Shown here: positions 6,328 to 42,019 of the stretch, piece after piece
Position numbering within the stretch: the first letter of the stretch is position 1
Layout of the letters: every line of letters starts with the position of its first letter
IMG/VR virus record: IMGVR_UViG_2534682338_000012
Coordinates: 1-54,083 of that record
From: a virus
Lineage: Duplodnaviria > Heunggongvirae > Uroviricota > Caudoviricetes
Length of the DNA stretch: 54,083 nucleotides
Direction: 5' to 3' (one strand)
Notes under the pieces: generated by a model
Seen by the model: only the letters and a program-made list of their open reading frames with translations
Database searches by the model: none
What the model was told of the DNA's origin: nothing
Translations under genes and position numbers: made by a program

Positions 6328-6505
6328 CATCCTGTGATAAAACCGTGATTTCCTGATCCAGTTTTTTTAAGGAGTCTATTGTTTCCTGTCGATAAGACAG
6401 CACTTCACGAAGCTGGTTTATAGCTGCCAGCTTCTTTGTCATCCACTCATAAATTTCCTCATCTGTGTAGCCAGGCGCGACGATTTTGGGTTCTGTTTTG
6501 TGCAT
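6299..6505 (-). CDS. small hypothetical protein (68 aa), first ORF downstream of putative pL
   Basis: Start at MHKTEPK preceded by GAGGAGG RBS; 3' end overlaps the convergent 144-aa gene by ~29 bp. Confidence 0.4.
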   Translation of the reverse strand: MHKTEPKIVAPGYTDEEIYEWMTKKLAAINQLREVLSYRQETIDSLKKLDQEITVLSQDVTLDIVQTN

Positions 6506-6739: not shown

Positions 6740-7414
6740 TTAGGCTTTGATTTTGTATCTTCTTGGTTTTCCTGAGAAAATCACTGTACCAATTATAGAG
6801 CAATTACCGTTGATCTTAATGTAAGGCTCAGGCCAGTTTGGGTTTAACGCTTTGAGATAACGCTGTGTCCCATCTTCTATTAACCTTTTGAAGGTGGTTT
6901 CACCTGTATCGTGCATCAATGCAATAACGTCGTCACCGTGGCAGGCAGGTACTTCAGGATCGACAAAAATCATGTCTCCCGGGCGGTACTCATCAATCAT
7001 TGAATCACCTATCACCCGCAAGATATAAGTCATTTCCCCACAGGGTACAGGGCAGGGATACGTTTCTGCTGTGCTCAAATCAACCTCAGAATATCCAACT
7101 TCTTTCCATGCTCCGGCCTGTACCCATGATATGACAGGGACTAATGTGATTTGTTTATTAGTGATTGAAACATCAGGTTTTTTTGTGATGTTCGTTGTCT
7201 GGTGTTCTTGATCGAGCCATCCGACAGGTAGGTCGAAACATTTTTCGATGTGTCGTGCCATGCTGTCACCGATATTTTTAGTAGCACCATCTCCCATAAA
7301 CCTGCTGGTCTGGGTTGGCTCGCGATCAATCATAGTGGCAAAGGAAGAATTCCCGCCAACACCATCTCTCAGTTTTCTGGCGTTAGACCGCCGGATGTCA
7401 TGGATTGTTTTCAT
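6740..7414 (-). CDS. cI: CI-like prophage repressor with LexA-like S24 peptidase domain
   Basis: 224 aa; N-terminal HTH region, C-terminal GDSM serine and downstream Lys typical of S24 autocleavage domain; divergent from cro. Confidence 0.9.
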   Translation of the reverse strand: MKTIHDIRRSNARKLRDGVGGNSSFATMIDREPTQTSRFMGDGATKNIGDSMARHIEKCFDLPVGWLDQEHQTTNITKKPDVSITNKQITLVPVISWVQAGAWKEVGYSEVDLSTAETYPCPVPCGEMTYILRVIGDSMIDEYRPGDMIFVDPEVPACHGDDVIALMHDTGETTFKRLIEDGTQRYLKALNPNWPEPYIKINGNCSIIGTVIFSGKPRRYKIKA

Positions 7415-8655: not shown

Positions 8656-9586
8656 ATTAACCGGCTATGTATGGGATGGTTGCGCTGCATCAGGCATGAA
8701 ATTATCCAGCGTGGCAATTATGGCCCGCCTGGCTGATTTCAGTAATGACGAAGGTGTGTGCTGGCCATCAATTGAAACCATTGCCCGCCAGATTGGCGCG
8801 GGAATGAGTACCGTCAGAACGGCTATCGCACGGCTGGAAGCAGAAGGCTGGTTAACGCGTAAGGCGCGTCGCCAGGGTAACCGCAATGCGTCGAATGTTT
8901 ATCAGCTTAACGTTGCGAAGCTTCAGGCAGCGGCATTTTCTCAACTGTCAGATTCTGACCCGTCAAAATCTGACGCATCAAAATCTGACCCGTCAAAATT
9001 TGATGCGTCGAAATCTGGCAAAAAAGCGGGTTTTCACCCGTCAGAATCTGGCGGGGATCCGTCAGTAAAATCAAAACATGATCCGTCAGATAAAAAAACT
9101 TCTCGTCCGGACGCTTCGCAACCGGACACGCAGACGGCTGAACAGGAGTTTTTAACTCGCCATCCTGATGCGGTTGTATTCAGCCCTAAAAAGCGCCAGT
9201 GGGGAACGCAGGATGATTTGACCTGCGCACAGTGGCTCTGGAAAAAAATCATCGCCCTGTACGAGCAGGCCGCCGAATGTGACGGCGAGGTGGTTCGTCC
9301 CAAAGAACCGAACTGGACAGCCTGGGCAAACGAAATTCGCCTGATGTGTGTGCAGGATGGTCGTACTCATAAACAAATCTGCGAGATGTACAGCCGCGTC
9401 AGTCGCGATCCGTTCTGGTGCCGTAACGTGCTCAGCCCGTCGAAGCTGCGGGAAAAATGGGATGAGCTTTCCCTGCGCTTATCGCCGTCCGTCAGCACGT
9501 ACACCGAAAAACGCGAAGACCCGTACTTCAAAGCCAGTTACGACAACGTGGACTACAGCCAGATCCCGGCAGGATTCAGGGGGTGA
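8645..9586 (+). CDS. replication initiation protein (lambda O-like)
   Basis: 313 aa; N-terminal HTH-like region followed by repeat-encoded DPSKSDASKSDPSKFDASKS linker that coincides with DNA iterons. Confidence 0.8.
   Translation: MSTKLTGYVWDGCAASGMKLSSVAIMARLADFSNDEGVCWPSIETIARQIGAGMSTVRTAIARLEAEGWLTRKARRQGNRNASNVYQLNVAKLQAAAFSQLSDSDPSKSDASKSDPSKFDASKSGKKAGFHPSESGGDPSVKSKHDPSDKKTSRPDASQPDTQTAEQEFLTRHPDAVVFSPKKRQWGTQDDLTCAQWLWKKIIALYEQAAECDGEVVRPKEPNWTAWANEIRLMCVQDGRTHKQICEMYSRVSRDPFWCRNVLSPSKLREKWDELSLRLSPSVSTYTEKREDPYFKASYDNVDYSQIPAGFRG
8945..9100. repeat. origin iterons inside the O-like gene
   Basis: About 8 imperfect direct repeats of CCGTCA(A/G)AATCTGAC-type units followed by an A-rich tract. 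Confidence 0.6.
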
Positions 9587-9588
9587 TC

Positions 9589-10077
9589 ATGAGTCTGTTA
9601 AATGACGTTCAGAAATTCATTGAAGCCCATCCGGGGTGTACTTCCGGAGACATTGCGGATGCTTTTGCAGGTTACTCACGGCAGCGCGTTCTGCAGTCTG
9701 CAAGCAAGTTACGTCAGAGTGGGCGTGTGGCTCACCGTTGTGAAGGAGATACACGCAGACATTTCCCGCGCCTGACTGAGAGAGCGCAGGAGCCGGAACC
9801 ACAACCAGTTCGTGAAACCAGACCTGTGCGCAATTTCTATGTCGGCACTAACGATCCCCGGGTGATTTTGTGCCTGACCCGCCAGGCGGAAGAACTGGAG
9901 TCCAGGGGCTTATACCGTCGTGCTGCAACGGTGTGGATGGCGGCATTCCGTGAAAGCCACTCCCAGCCAGAACGAAACAATTTTCTGGCGCGTCGTGAAC
10001 GGTGTTTACGGAAAAGCAGCAAGCGGGCTGCATCAGGTGAAGAGTGGTATCTGTCAGGGAATTACGTGGGGGCTTAA
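9589..10077 (+). CDS. PerC-like transcriptional regulator
   Basis: Contains AEELESRGLYRRAATVWMAAF resembling the conserved PerC/Pch core; start taken at ATG after GGGGGTG. Confidence 0.45.
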   Translation: MSLLNDVQKFIEAHPGCTSGDIADAFAGYSRQRVLQSASKLRQSGRVAHRCEGDTRRHFPRLTERAQEPEPQPVRETRPVRNFYVGTNDPRVILCLTRQAEELESRGLYRRAATVWMAAFRESHSQPERNNFLARRERCLRKSSKRAASGEEWYLSGNYVGA

Positions 10078-10730
10078 TGAGTAATAAATATTGCCAGGCG
10101 CTGGTGGAACTGCGGAACAAACCAGCCCATGAACTGAAGGAAGTGGGCGATCAGTGGCGCACGCCGGACAACATTTTCTGGGGAATTAACACCCTGTTTG
10201 GCCCGTTTGTTCTGGATCTGTTCACCGACGGTGATAACGCCAAATGTGCCGCGTATTACACGGCGGAAGACAATGCGCTGGCGCATGACTGGTCAGAACG
10301 TCTTGCGGAGCTTAAAGGTGCTGCCTTTGGTAATCCCCCATACAGCCGCGCCAGTCAGCATGAGGGGCAATACATCACTGGCATGCGTTACATAATGAAG
10401 CATGCCAGTTCCATGCGTGATAAAGGCGGTCGCTATGTTTTCCTGATCAAAGCTGCCACCAGCGAAGTGTGGTGGCCGGAAGATGCAGATCATATTGCTT
10501 TTATTCGCGGGCGTATTGGTTTTGAACTGCCTGTCTGGTTTATCCCGAAAGACGAGAAGCAGGTGCCGACAGGCGCTTTCTTCGCTGGTGCTATTGCTGT
10601 TTTCGACAAGACCTGGAAGGGACCGGCAATCAGCTACATCGGGCGCGATGAACTTGAGGCATGTGGTGAGGCGTTTCTGGCGCAGGTTCGCCAGCAGGCG
10701 GAAAAACTGGTCAGGGAGATGGCGGCATGA
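10077..10730 (+). CDS. phage DNA N6-adenine methyltransferase (Dam-type)
   Basis: GNPPY(S) catalytic motif (AAFGNPPYSRA); TAATG overlap with upstream gene. Confidence 0.85.
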   Translation: MSNKYCQALVELRNKPAHELKEVGDQWRTPDNIFWGINTLFGPFVLDLFTDGDNAKCAAYYTAEDNALAHDWSERLAELKGAAFGNPPYSRASQHEGQYITGMRYIMKHASSMRDKGGRYVFLIKAATSEVWWPEDADHIAFIRGRIGFELPVWFIPKDEKQVPTGAFFAGAIAVFDKTWKGPAISYIGRDELEACGEAFLAQVRQQAEKLVREMAA

Positions 10731-11053
10731 CGACGTTAACTCAATGCCAGCAGCAGGTGCTGGATATGCTGATTTCTTATCAGAAAGAACGTGGCTTCCC
10801 GCCAACCAATCAGGAGGTGGCAACCATGCTGGGATACCGTTCGGTGAATGCAGCGGTGGAACATCTTCGCGCACTGGAGAAAAAAGGCGTCATCACGATA
10901 AAGCGTGGTGTGGCCCGGGGGATCACGCTTCATACCGTGGTGAAGGACGACGACAGCGAGGCGGTCGGGATTATCCGCTCACTGCTTGCCGGTGAGGAAA
11001 ACGCCAGGCTGCGTGCAGCCCACTGGTTACATGAGAGGGGCCTGAAAGTATGA
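10727..11053 (+). CDS. LexA N-terminal DNA-binding-domain-like protein (no peptidase domain)
   Basis: 108 aa; LTQCQQQVLDMLISYQKERGFPPTNQEVATMLGYRSVNAAVEHLRALEKKGVI closely parallels the LexA winged-helix domain. Confidence 0.6.
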   Translation: MTTLTQCQQQVLDMLISYQKERGFPPTNQEVATMLGYRSVNAAVEHLRALEKKGVITIKRGVARGITLHTVVKDDDSEAVGIIRSLLAGEENARLRAAHWLHERGLKV

Positions 11054-11439
11054 AGCTAATACTGCCTTTTCCGCCCAGCGTGAACACGTACTGGCGACAC
11101 CCCAACAAAGGGGCGTTTGCAGGTAAGAGCCTGATAAGCGTGGCAGGGCGAAAATTCCAGAGCGCGGCGTGCGCAGCAATAGTTGAGCAGTTACGTCGTC
11201 TGCCGAAACCAACGTCGGCACCTGCTTCAGTGGAGATCGTGTTGTTTCCTCCGGATAACCGGATCCGCGATCTGGACAACTATAACAAGGCGCTGTTTGA
11301 CGCCCTGACCCACGCGGGTGTGTGGGAAGACGACAGTCAGGTGAAAAGAATGCTGGTGGAGTGGGGACCGGTTATCCCGGAGGGGAAGGTCGAGATCACT
11401 ATCAGTAAGTACGAGAAAACGGCGGGTGCAGCCGCCTGA
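11050..11439 (+). CDS. rusA: RusA Holliday junction resolvase
   Basis: MKLILPFPPSVNTYWR... conserved RusA N-terminus and acidic residues. Confidence 0.9.
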   Translation: MKLILPFPPSVNTYWRHPNKGAFAGKSLISVAGRKFQSAACAAIVEQLRRLPKPTSAPASVEIVLFPPDNRIRDLDNYNKALFDALTHAGVWEDDSQVKRMLVEWGPVIPEGKVEITISKYEKTAGAAA

Positions 11440-11459
11440 TCAAGAGGAGAAACGAAGTA

Positions 11460-12267
11460 TGAATAATCTGATGGTCATTGATGGTATTGAAGTTCGTCGT
11501 GATGCTTATGGGCGTTACAGCCTGAACGATCTGCACAGGGCAGCCGGGGGAGAACAAAAAACCGCCCGAAATACTGGCTCTCCAATAAGCAAACCTGTGA
11601 ATTGATTGAACAACTTTTCACCGAGGGTGGAATTCCGCCTCTGGAACAAAATCAACCAGTTAGCGTCATTAATGGCGGAAATAACCAGGGGACGTATGTC
11701 TGCAAAGAACTGGTGTATGCCTATGCAATGTGGATCAGCCCGTCATTCCATCTGAAGGTGATCCGTACTTTCGATATGGTAACCAGCGCACCGGAAAAAT
11801 TATCCGGGCAGGCTGCTGACAAGATGCAGGCTGGAGTGATTCTGCTGGACTTTATGCGCAGGGAGTTAAACCTGTCTAACTCTTCAGTGCTTGGGGCCTG
11901 TCAGAAACTCCAGGAGGCTGTTGGCTTACCGAATCTGGCACCGCGCTATGCCATTGATGCTCCTGCTGACGCGCCTGATGGCTCAAGTCGCCCGACACTG
12001 TCGCTGAGTGCACTGCTGAAACAGTATGGTATCCGCCTTACGGCTAATCAGGCATATCACCAGATGGCGAAGCTGGGGATCGTCGAACAGCGCGAACGAT
12101 ACAGCCGTACAGCGATTAACAACATCAAAAAATTCTGGTCGCTGACGGCGAAAGGCTGCATGTTCGGCAAGAACATCACCAGTCCTGCAAATCCGCGCGA
12201 GACGCAGCCGCACTTCTTCGAATCCCGATTCCCTGAGCTGTTAAAGCTGCTCGATACCGTTCATTGA
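11460..12267 (+). pseudogene. KilA-N domain protein interrupted by frameshift in an A6 run
   Basis: ATG with AAGAGGAGA RBS encodes MNNLMVIDGIEVRRDAYGRYSLNDLHRAAGGEQK then stops; the +1 frame continues ...NRPKYWLSNKQTCELIEQLFTEGG into the 221-aa ORF 11602-12267. Confidence 0.5.
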
Positions 12268-12268
12268 G

Positions 12269-13264
12269 GTGACCGTGAGAGCACTACTGACCCCTGAAAT
12301 TGCCCCGCGTATGGGGATCGTATTGTTCAGACCAGGTTCAGAGCTGATGCCCCTGTTTATGCAGGGGCGTGTCCTGCTGGAGCCTGAGCCGGAACGTTAT
12401 TCATCTTTCGCCAGTGGTGCCGTTCCGGCGGCATCACAACCGCTGGCGGATGATCCTGCCGTTCGGGCCGTATTCCGCAATGAGGCAGTGATCCGTCGTG
12501 CTGGTGGCGTGGAATGTCTTGAAAGCTGGTTACTTCGTGAAAAGGGCTGCCAGTGGCCTCATTCCGACTGGCACAGCGAGAACATGACCACAATGCGACA
12601 CGCTCCGGGCGCAATCCGTCTGTGCTGGCACTGCGATAACCAGCTGCGCGATCAGTTCACGGAACGGCTGGAATCAATGGCAACGGATAACTGTGCCCGC
12701 TGGGTGTTGTCTGTTGTGCGTCGGGATCTCGGTTTTGATGACAGTCACGTTGTGACAATGCCGGAACTGTGCTGGTGGCTGGTTCGTAATGACCTGGCGG
12801 GTGCCTTGCCGGAAAGTGCAGCCCGTAAGGCACTGAGATTACCGAAGCCTGTTGTGCCGTCTGTCACCCGGGAAAGTGACCTTGTTCCTTCGGTTCCTGC
12901 CATCAGCATCATCCAGGATAAAGTGAAAAAGGTGCTGGCGCTGAAAGTGGATCCGGAGTCGCCGGAGTCTTTTATGTTACGCCCAAAACGTCGCCGCTGG
13001 GTTAACGAAAAGTACACGCGCTGGGTTAAGACACAGCCGTGTGCATGTTGTGGAAAGCCTGCTGATGATCCCCACCACCTGATAGGCCACGGTCAGAGGG
13101 GAATGGGTACAAAAGCGCATGACCTCTTTGTGTTGCCTTTGTGCAGAAAGCATCACGACGAGCTGCATGCGGATACCGTGGCATTTGAAGAGAAGTATGG
13201 CTCCCAGTTGGAGCTGATATTTCGTTTTATCGATCGTGCGCTGGCAATAGGCGTACTGGCGTAA
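12269..13264 (+). CDS. DUF968-family prophage protein (HNH-like C-terminus)
   Basis: 331 aa, GTG start; C-terminal CxxCG...HHL...GMGTKAHD...CRKHHDELH motif cluster. Confidence 0.55.
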   Translation: MTVRALLTPEIAPRMGIVLFRPGSELMPLFMQGRVLLEPEPERYSSFASGAVPAASQPLADDPAVRAVFRNEAVIRRAGGVECLESWLLREKGCQWPHSDWHSENMTTMRHAPGAIRLCWHCDNQLRDQFTERLESMATDNCARWVLSVVRRDLGFDDSHVVTMPELCWWLVRNDLAGALPESAARKALRLPKPVVPSVTRESDLVPSVPAISIIQDKVKKVLALKVDPESPESFMLRPKRRRWVNEKYTRWVKTQPCACCGKPADDPHHLIGHGQRGMGTKAHDLFVLPLCRKHHDELHADTVAFEEKYGSQLELIFRFIDRALAIGVLA

Positions 13265-13277
13265 GTGGAGAACGAGC

Positions 13278-14030
13278 ATGAACCTTGAAGCTTTACCAAA
13301 ATATTACTCCCCAAAATCTCCAAAATTGAGCGATGACGCACCGGCGACAGGCTCGGGTGGTTTAACAATTACAGATGTGATGGCTGCGCAGGGGATGGTG
13401 CAGTCGAAAGCACCGCTTGGGTTTGCCTTATTCCTGGCAAAAGTTGGTGTTCAGGATCCTCAGTTTGCGATTGAAGGTCTGCTCAATTACGCGATGGCAC
13501 TGGATAACCCGACATTGAACAAATTGAGTGAAGAAACCCGGCTACAGATCATTCCTTACCTTGTGAATTTTGCCTTTGCTGATTATTCCAGGTCTGCGGC
13601 AAGTAAGGCTCGCTGTGAGCGTTGTGCTGGTACTGGATTTCATAATGTATTGCGCGAAGTGGTGAAACACTCCAGAAGCGGGGAGTCTGTTATCAAGGAA
13701 GAGTGGGTGAAGGAACTATGTCAGCATTGTCATGGTAAGGGAGAAGTCAGCACAGCGTGCAGAGGGTGTAAGGGTAAAGGTATTGTCCTGGATGAAAAAA
13801 GAACCCGGCTTCATGGTACGCCTGTTTATAAGATTTGTGGGCGTTGCAATGGAAAACGGTTTAGTCGTTTACCAACCACACTGGCGCGGCATCATGTCCA
13901 GAAACTGGTACCAGACCTGACGGATTATCAGTGGTACAAAGGATATGCAGATGTCATTGATAAACTGGTTACAAAGTGCTGGCAGGAGGAATCTTACGCT
14001 GAAGCACAATTGAGAAAGGTGACAAGATAA
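13278..14030 (+). CDS. late-gene antiterminator Q-like protein with zinc-finger repeats
   Basis: 250 aa with CxxCxGxG repeats (CERCAGTG, CQHCHGKG, CRGCKGKG, CGRCNGKR); positioned immediately upstream of late promoter/lysis region. Confidence 0.55.
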   Translation: MNLEALPKYYSPKSPKLSDDAPATGSGGLTITDVMAAQGMVQSKAPLGFALFLAKVGVQDPQFAIEGLLNYAMALDNPTLNKLSEETRLQIIPYLVNFAFADYSRSAASKARCERCAGTGFHNVLREVVKHSRSGESVIKEEWVKELCQHCHGKGEVSTACRGCKGKGIVLDEKRTRLHGTPVYKICGRCNGKRFSRLPTTLARHHVQKLVPDLTDYQWYKGYADVIDKLVTKCWQEESYAEAQLRKVTR

Positions 14031-41809: not shown

Positions 41810-41855
41810 ATTCGTAATGCGAAGGTCGTAGGTTCGACTCCTATTATCGGCACCA
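41810..41855. repeat. attR of prophage / attL of P4-like element (partial tRNA-Thr 3' end)
   Basis: 46-bp copy of tRNA 3' end lacking the 5' half. Confidence 0.7.
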
Positions 41856-42019
41856 TCACCTAGTTTTCCCAAGTCAACCCACATCAACAAAATCATTTAA
41901 AAACATATATATTACGTTATTTTCATACGTTTGAGGTCAACCCTTGTCTCTTGAAATCAACACGCGGTTGGGGGCACAATCAGGGGCATGTTCTGTTCGG
42001 TCTAGGAAATGTGCCCCCA

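Follow-up and report, generated by a model that had tools for sequence, protein, structure and literature searches.

Phage proteins that carry the DNA-binding domain of LexA without its protease are already a known kind. The only experimentally characterised case of a truncated LexA homologue in a phage that we found is gp6 of the Bacillus tectivirus GIL01, which binds GaCACAnnTGTGaC over the -35 element of the late promoter P3 and activates this promoter, its operator not being a LexA box (PMC6182141). A second small phage protein of related interest is NinH of phage lambda, whose gene adjoins that of the resolvase Rap. Of host Fis, NinH retains only the part that binds DNA; it dimerises by means of its own C-terminal region and prefers a Fis-like motif; it is a dimer for which DNA bending has been demonstrated, and it has no preference for junction DNA (PMC7166090). 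Here we describe a LexA-like gene encoding 108 amino acids at positions 10727 to 11053 of a 54,083-nucleotide stretch of tailed-virus DNA (IMG/VR record IMGVR_UViG_2534682338_000012, positions 1 to 54,083), which we refer to as the window. The gene is real, very common and already annotated, under names such as 'LexA family protein' and 'transcriptional repressor', and it is functionally uncharacterised in enterobacterial phages: full-text searches of the literature gave no functional study of the enterobacterial LexA-like family, and catalogues of Shiga toxin (Stx) phages list the gene without a function. We tentatively read its product as a LexA mimic that RecA* should leave intact.

The gene and its parts are as follows.

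10713 to 10719, + strand: Shine-Dalgarno-like AGGGAGA, read from the sequence, 7 nt before the ATG and within the end of dam
10727 to 11053, + strand: LexA-like coding sequence, 108 amino acids, ATG start, stop codon included (open reading frame list, PF01726, PHROG 362, polymorphism ratio)
10727 to 10930, + strand: winged helix-turn-helix, residues 1-68, homologous to the LexA N-terminal domain
10841 to 10882, + strand: recognition helix, residues 39-52, SVNAAVEHLRALEK in the window and SPNAAEEHLKALAR in LexA (phmmer alignment)
10949 to 11035, + strand: two-helix tail, residues 75-103 (model secondary structure and conservation), with no significant match in PDB or Pfam

The initial annotation had proposed a LexA N-terminal winged helix lacking the autoprotease. 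The reading frame lies exactly where it was claimed, and the domain assignment is borne out by profile, sequence and structure comparisons. The whole of the Pfam profile LexA_DNA_bind (PF01726) was matched (1-65/65; E=2.9e-19; 69 bits against a cutoff of 23.7), and PHROG 362, labelled 'transcriptional repressor', was matched at E=2.4e-59 (1-108 on a profile of 106 positions). A phmmer search of solved structures found the N-terminal domain of E. coli LexA (1lea) at E=7.5e-16; the two sequences align without a gap and with no shift in numbering. Furthermore, an AlphaFold model of the protein, built on 29 family sequences (mean predicted local distance difference test score, pLDDT, 82.9), superimposes on the DNA-bound LexA of crystal 3jso with a root-mean-square deviation of 1.0 A over 66-67 residues and 51-52% identity; residues 1-68 of the model are predicted to form helices 6-22, 28-35 and 40-52 and strands 56-58 and 66-68. 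The similarity to LexA is far beyond chance. The protein stops at residue 108, and the S24 peptidase and dimerisation domain with its Ser119-Lys156 dyad is missing: Peptidase_S24 (PF00717) gave no match in the 108 residues, and the NCBIfam lexA equivalog TIGR00498 scored 71 bits, below its cutoff of 110.95, with only model positions 1-91 of 203 aligned.

The one pair of residues reminiscent of the LexA cleavage site is Ala-Gly at positions 88-89, which HMMER aligned to Ala84-Gly85 of LexA. These residues fall in the predicted helix 75-87/linker, no protease is available in cis to cut them, and Ala88 and Gly89 are present in 76 and 87, respectively, of the 128 full-architecture, tail-bearing family members on which all our residue tabulations are based. 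A remnant cleavage site, possibly cut in trans, was therefore considered and rejected as a feature of the family, the pair being unconserved and predicted to be helical. Because the S24 domain and a functional cleavage site are both absent, the LexA-like protein should be insensitive to RecA*, and the earlier proposal of a non-cleavable, RecA-independent factor stands.

Beyond the LexA head the protein has a tail of its own. In the AlphaFold model a disordered acidic linker (residues 71-75) precedes two amphipathic helices, 75-87 and 93-103, with pLDDT about 88. The tail consensus of the family is EAVxLLRxLxxGxxxARxRAxxxLxxxG; Ala97 is invariant (128/128), and conservation extends to hydrophobic positions 79, 80, 82, 83, 86, 87, 98, 100 and 101 and to the arginines Arg84, Arg94, Arg96 and Arg104. 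A profile search with the tail alone recovered nothing but fragments of the same LexA-like family, and there is therefore no sign of domain shuffling. From its conservation and modelled structure we infer that the tail may mediate dimerisation, or bind a partner, in place of the missing S24 domain.

The residues named as contacting DNA in E. coli LexA are Ser39, Asn41, Ala42, Glu44 and Glu45 (PMC3091678, PMC13416735). When the corresponding segments are aligned (SVNAAVEHLRAL in the window protein, SPNAAEEHLKAL in LexA), four of the five are seen to be retained (Ser39, Asn41, Ala42 and Glu45) and Glu44 is replaced by Val. Lys53 and Arg64-Gly65 of LexA are also retained, and Ser39, Asn41, Lys53 and Arg64-Gly65 are invariant across the family.

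Near-identical DNA is present in 2233 of 5426 complete E. coli genomes (about 40%), in up to four copies each, and 50 phage records carry a near-identical copy, among them SfII, SfIV, SfV (orf42), cdtI, mEp460, 1720a-02 and Stx2a and Stx2c phages. Interference of phage 1720a-02 with a co-resident prophage has been attributed to Cro. The ratio of nonsynonymous to synonymous polymorphism (pN/pS), calculated from 43 distinct alleles among 82 copies, was 0.046 overall, 0.011 for residues 1-70 and 0.147 for residues 71-108. Judged from these allele sequences, the LexA-like gene encodes a functional protein under strong purifying selection. Since pN/pS is low and the tail is conserved across the family, we regard the protein as functional and not as a truncated remnant.

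The family to which it belongs comprises about 2000 proteins in enterobacterial prophages, as found by profile search at E<=1e-5, with hosts in Escherichia, Shigella, Salmonella, Citrobacter, Klebsiella, Raoultella, Cronobacter, Atlantibacter, Kosakonia and other genera. Its architecture is a LexA head followed by a C-terminal tail, with a total length of about 105-135 residues, which the window protein fits. Stand-alone LexA heads of 65-150 residues are widespread in phages, as seen in a structure search of viral models. Database proteins of 140-350 residues were also observed that have two tandem LexA DNA-binding domains and no protease (P0132, P0133, P0149, P0152, P0153 and others); these may represent an alternative route to a two-headed, uncleavable LexA-like binder. 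Several database names given to the 108-residue protein are misannotations, namely 'SOS-response repressor and protease LexA', 'RecA-mediated autopeptidases' and 'Rrf2 family regulator'.

The gene lies in a prophage of 40.4 kb, whose attL and attR sites are a 47-bp direct repeat (1399-1445 and 41810-41856) formed by the 3' part of tRNA-Thr(CGU); the sequence past 41856 is outside the prophage. The description of the gene as phage-encoded is accordingly upheld, and it is an early gene of this element. With window positions 1445-25000 as query, phage vB_EcoM-689R6 matched at 97% identity over 76% of the query, and SfIV and SfV matched over about 52%; by sequence the prophage is SfV/SfIV-like. 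The relevant neighbours are these.

1459 to 2622, - strand: integrase
6740 to 7414, - strand: CI repressor with an S24 domain of its own (PF00717, E=1.5e-26), flanked by TGTAC/GTACA operator palindromes
9583 to 10077: PerC-family protein, homologous to the PerC/Pch virulence activators of enteropathogenic and enterohaemorrhagic E. coli, upstream of the LexA-like gene
10044 to 10730, + strand: phage Dam N6-adenine methyltransferase (PF05869, E=9.2e-46), its stop overlapping the LexA-like start
11050 to 11439, + strand: RusA Holliday-junction resolvase (PF05866), its start overlapping the LexA-like stop
11459 to 12267: KilA-N/antirepressor-like gene, split, downstream of rusA
12269 to 13264, + strand: DUF968/HNH-like protein (PF06147, E=1.1e-79), accompanying the LexA-like gene in all contexts seen
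13278 to 14030, + strand: Q antiterminator (PF03589), terminal gene of the early rightward operon

This phage has its RecA-cleavable switch in CI, separate from the LexA-like gene. After CI the gene order is cro, a CII-like gene, an O-like replication gene, the PerC-family gene, dam, the LexA-like gene, rusA, the KilA-N gene, the DUF968/HNH gene and Q. The LexA-like ATG overlaps the dam stop in ATGA (10727-10730), and its own stop overlaps the rusA ATG in the same manner (ATGA, 11050-11053). A consensus scan of the + strand from the cro region to Q found no promoter-like site, and because of this the LexA-like gene is classed as delayed-early within the rightward operon. The same scan detected no internal promoter from which the gene could be expressed in the lysogen. 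Lying in the rightward early operon and having no promoter-like site of its own, the gene should be expressed only after derepression of the prophage or after infection. A search for defence systems with PADLOC gave a single weak and irrelevant match, so that membership of such a system is not supported.

Two neighbours showed peculiarities of their own. The KilA-N gene is frameshifted at a poly-A run (about 11553-11560): its open reading frame ends at 11605, and the next one (11602-12267, in another frame) encodes just the latter half of the KilA-N domain, SfIV having an intact version of 275 residues (L001:9870-10697). The split could reflect a pseudogene, a sequencing error or slippage. The neighbouring Dam is mislabelled 'phosphoadenosine phosphosulfate reductase' in RefSeq phage records.

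The surroundings of the gene were compared in 80 viral contigs carrying the E. coli type and in 11 subfamily contexts that span 40-65% protein identity. In the latter, the upstream slot is occupied by a methyltransferase (PF05869, PF02086, PF00145 or fusions), by PerC, or by an SOS-box/dinI cassette, and downstream come, in this order, RusA, whose start usually shows the 4-nt overlap seen in the window, an antirepressor-like gene (KilA-N or Rha/ANT), DUF968 and Q. RusA lies directly 3' of the LexA-like gene in all 80 E. coli-type contigs and in 10 of the 11 subfamily contexts. The 5' neighbour in the E. coli-type contigs is Dam in 52 and PerC in 28, and a PerC-family gene is co-inherited in 75 of the 80 loci. 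In the SfIV-type phages without dam (28/80), the first 10 dam codons (MVSVRELRGG) stay fused in frame 5' of the LexA-like ATG, as seen when window 10044-10077 is compared with L001:8968-9003; dam appears to be a cassette precisely inserted or deleted between the PerC-family and LexA-like genes. Among 49 full-length loci encoding a protein at least 98% identical, the window type of CI was found in 17, that of O in 31 and that of Q in 15. RusA, by comparison, was of the same type in 79 of 80 loci and DUF968 in 49 of 49 (at least 90% identity, full-length loci). Likewise, two Atlantibacter prophages have LexA-like proteins that are 100% identical, and their Q and antirepressor genes differ. The LexA-like protein is thus unattached to any immunity or late-control module, and it is RusA and DUF968 that accompany it constantly; because near-identical proteins pair with different types of CI, O and Q, its target is unlikely to lie in the region of immunity or of late control.

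Some relatives of the gene have SOS boxes in their vicinity. The perfect box TACTGTATTTATGAACAGTA is found in SfIV and in 13 of the 80 E. coli-type loci, 443 bp 3' of the LexA-like gene and before KilA-N. In SfIV it lies at L001:9765-9784; the counterpart segment is missing in the window (11439-11459), where KilA-N follows 20 nt after rusA. The SfIV rusA gene itself carries a nonsense mutation. In the Klebsiella-type loci and in loci L178 and L176, a perfect SOS box is found 5' of an operon that ends in the LexA-like gene (dinI-orf-gene or orf75-gene). In these operons (L002:5385-6393; L178:2853-3846; L176:4563-5357) dinI or a 75-residue open reading frame is followed by a small open reading frame and then by the LexA-like gene, the proteins being N-terminally extended (118-135 residues). 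In these lineages an SOS response may switch on the LexA-like gene in the lysogen without any need for derepression of the prophage. We consider the SOS boxes beside the gene suggestive and not decisive.

The explanation that we favour, while giving it less than even weight, is that the protein mimics LexA as a RecA-insensitive dimer and acts on LexA-type host operators (SOS boxes) and on SOS-box accessory genes, with a recognition altered by the loss of Glu44. Support comes from the LexA fold and most of its contact residues being retained, from the absence of the protease and from the pN/pS of 0.011 in the DNA-binding domain, as well as from the perfect SOS boxes that adjoin the gene in several lineages. 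NinH, which is encoded in the same genome region and is a Fis mimic with its own dimerisation yet a Fis-like motif, would be a precedent by analogy. In the proposed mechanism the amphipathic tail would replace S24 as the dimerisation element and place two heads on an inverted repeat, and the heads would recognise CTGT-like half-sites. The targets would most likely be host LexA-type operators, since no phage regulatory module is constantly linked to the LexA-like gene, together with the SOS-box-controlled accessory genes that adjoin some relatives. In an SOS-induced cell in which LexA has been cleaved, the mimic would re-occupy some SOS operators and damp those SOS functions that are harmful to phage development, for example antirepressors under LexA control in competing prophages, genes for colicins and toxins, and the expression of recA and lexA. 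The universal loss of Glu44 suggests an altered or relaxed reading of one base, so that the operator set may differ from that of LexA. We rate as somewhat unlikely the more specific proposal that the mimic carried by some 40% of E. coli genomes re-closes, once its prophage is derepressed, a Glu44-independent subset of the SOS regulon after LexA has been destroyed.

Several observations weigh against a mimic of this kind. The DNA-contacting Glu44 is present in 79 of 79 chromosomal LexAs (from lexA genes of gamma- and beta-proteobacteria; genuine chromosomal lexA genes made up most of what a genome-wide search with the family alignment returned) and in 0 of the 128 tail-bearing family members, where residue 44 is V, A, T, N, F or L. 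Residue 45, which is Glu or Asp in the 79 LexAs, is E, D, L, G, I or V according to subfamily, although the LexA helix of the enterobacterial hosts is identical. A family devoted to an invariant host SOS box should have retained both positions. Binding to SOS boxes can therefore not be assumed, and their recognition, as read from these residues, would be less straightforward than first assumed. In the same pairs of phages, moreover, the LexA-like proteins are 45-58% identical and the RusA proteins 69-85%, and such faster divergence between phage lineages is a pattern typical of type-specific regulators. In the sequences compared, the head is almost frozen within one type and shifted between types, base-reading positions included. 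Furthermore, no perfect CTGT-N8-ACAG SOS box is present in the whole 54-kb window, and one-mismatch sites are not enriched in it (22 against 16.6 expected), none of them being in a promoter context. Scanning for CTG-N10-CAG with an AT-rich spacer gave nothing convincing, and a CTGT-N7-ACAG found at 6386 is inside a coding region. The proximity of SOS boxes to the LexA-like gene in other loci may be coincidental, because nin regions commonly hold accessory genes under SOS boxes (dinI, antirepressors). Finally, both dimerisation through the tail and DNA binding are themselves predictions from sequence and model. The main counter-arguments, the absence of Glu44 from the whole family and the differences at residue 45 between subfamilies, favour instead a regulator resembling gp6 or an accessory protein resembling NinH.

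The first of these, possible but doubtful in our view, is that the protein, like GIL01 gp6, acts as a transcription factor specific to the phage. Its LexA-derived head would have evolved to bind a phage operator other than a LexA box, and it would activate or repress a phage promoter independently of RecA, for example the promoter of the downstream KilA-N/antirepressor-like gene or of another early or late function. The activation of P3 by gp6 through GaCACAnnTGTGaC provides the precedent (PMC6182141). Residues 44 and 45 vary by subfamily and the protein outpaces its neighbours in divergence, as specificity determinants do; the absence of Glu44 throughout the family and the 'transcriptional repressor' label of PHROG 362 fit as well. 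However, the search for a candidate operator came up empty. Between 5900 and 14400 the CI/Cro operators are the sole strong palindromes; inverted or direct CTGT/ACAG repeats at spacings of 0-20 are unremarkable and none is enriched; the gp6-type site CACANNTGTG is absent from the window; and the intergenic gaps beside the LexA-like gene in 10 loci of different subfamilies have no motif in common. Near-identical proteins pair with different CI, O and Q modules, as described above, and late control in lambdoid phages is exerted by Q. When 50,697 phage records were searched by tblastn with the window protein, and not gp6, as query, 63 records were found at E<=1e-3, the named ones being from enterobacterial phages, with a few of metagenomic origin; the named matches listed included no tectivirus, and there is therefore no close sequence relationship to gp6.

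We consider it unlikely that the protein is a DNA-binding accessory of a core made of RusA, DUF968/HNH and the methylase, that is, an analogue of NinH in position and function that would bind or bend DNA with low specificity or would tether RusA. The position of rusA immediately after the gene, with an ATGA overlap that is usual even at about 45% identity, speaks for such a role, as do RusA and DUF968 being the only constantly co-inherited partners and the divergence of the protein tracking that of RusA (Spearman 0.60). Variable base-reading residues combined with invariant Ser39, Asn41, Lys53 and Arg64, which are putative backbone contacts, would suit low-specificity binding, and so would the conserved arginines in the tail; NinH, too, is encoded beside a resolvase, Rap, but shows no preference for junction DNA (PMC7166090). 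The adjacency to RusA, on the other hand, may reflect mere inheritance as a module, and it is not found in the Klebsiella-type loci. Moreover, the very low within-type pN/pS of the DNA-binding domain, recognition helix included, suggests specific recognition.

Because two thirds of LexA are missing and some records name the protein as a LexA protease, one might suspect a truncated pseudogene, left inert from a full-length LexA-like repressor, or an open reading frame due to chance. This reading is highly improbable and is refuted by the selection and conservation data: pN/pS is 0.046, the tail is conserved and family-specific, about 2000 relatives have the same length and architecture, rusA follows directly with no S24 remnants, and the gene is present in the viable phages SfV, SfII, mEp460 and cdtI.

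The SOS response, once induced, drives the induction of prophages and the release of Shiga toxin, and also mutagenesis and antibiotic tolerance. A look-alike of LexA that is proof against RecA and is made by induced prophages could reshape this response or mediate competition between co-resident prophages, and the scope would include more than 2000 sequenced E. coli genomes, the serotype-converting phages of Shigella and the Stx phages. If the protein is a mimic, the phage would set the duration and strength of the host SOS response, including mutagenesis, the genes for toxins and colicins, and those antirepressors that LexA controls in rival prophages, Stx phages for example. A phage-internal regulator or a RusA accessory would still assign a function to a very common gene of lambdoid phages. 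Work on the gene would correct a widespread misannotation such as 'LexA repressor and protease', and the replacement of Glu44 and the private tail offer two simple handles on function. The conserved two-helix tail, the rigid synteny with RusA and the precedent of GIL01 gp6 are points that go beyond the initial annotation.

Compared with the described systems, the LexA-like protein has partial counterparts in several. GIL01 gp7 and Listeria AriS resemble it as phage factors that alter LexA-dependent repression or SOS output and influence co-resident prophages; gp7 differs in that it binds LexA and not DNA, and neither gp7 nor, in the part of its published account available to us, AriS is described as a LexA homologue. 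The gp6 proteins of GIL01 and Bam35 share with it the nature of a truncated LexA homologue, early expression after induction and insensitivity to RecA. They differ in host and phage type, GIL01 gp6 being essentially the domain alone with a 14-residue end where the window protein has a two-helix tail, and in the window prophage late control is by Q. The gene of lambda NinH, likewise a small protein, lies between the replication genes and Q, beside a Holliday-junction resolvase gene, but NinH derives from Fis and has been assayed, whereas the window protein derives from LexA and is known from sequence and model. Finally, the N-terminal domain of E. coli LexA (1lea, 3jso) has the same winged-helix fold and numbering, with 51% identity and a root-mean-square deviation of 1.0 A, and the window protein departs from it in lacking S24 and the cleavage site, in having Val for Glu44 and in its private two-helix tail. 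E. coli LexA is autoregulated from an SOS-box promoter, whereas the window gene sits in a phage early operon.

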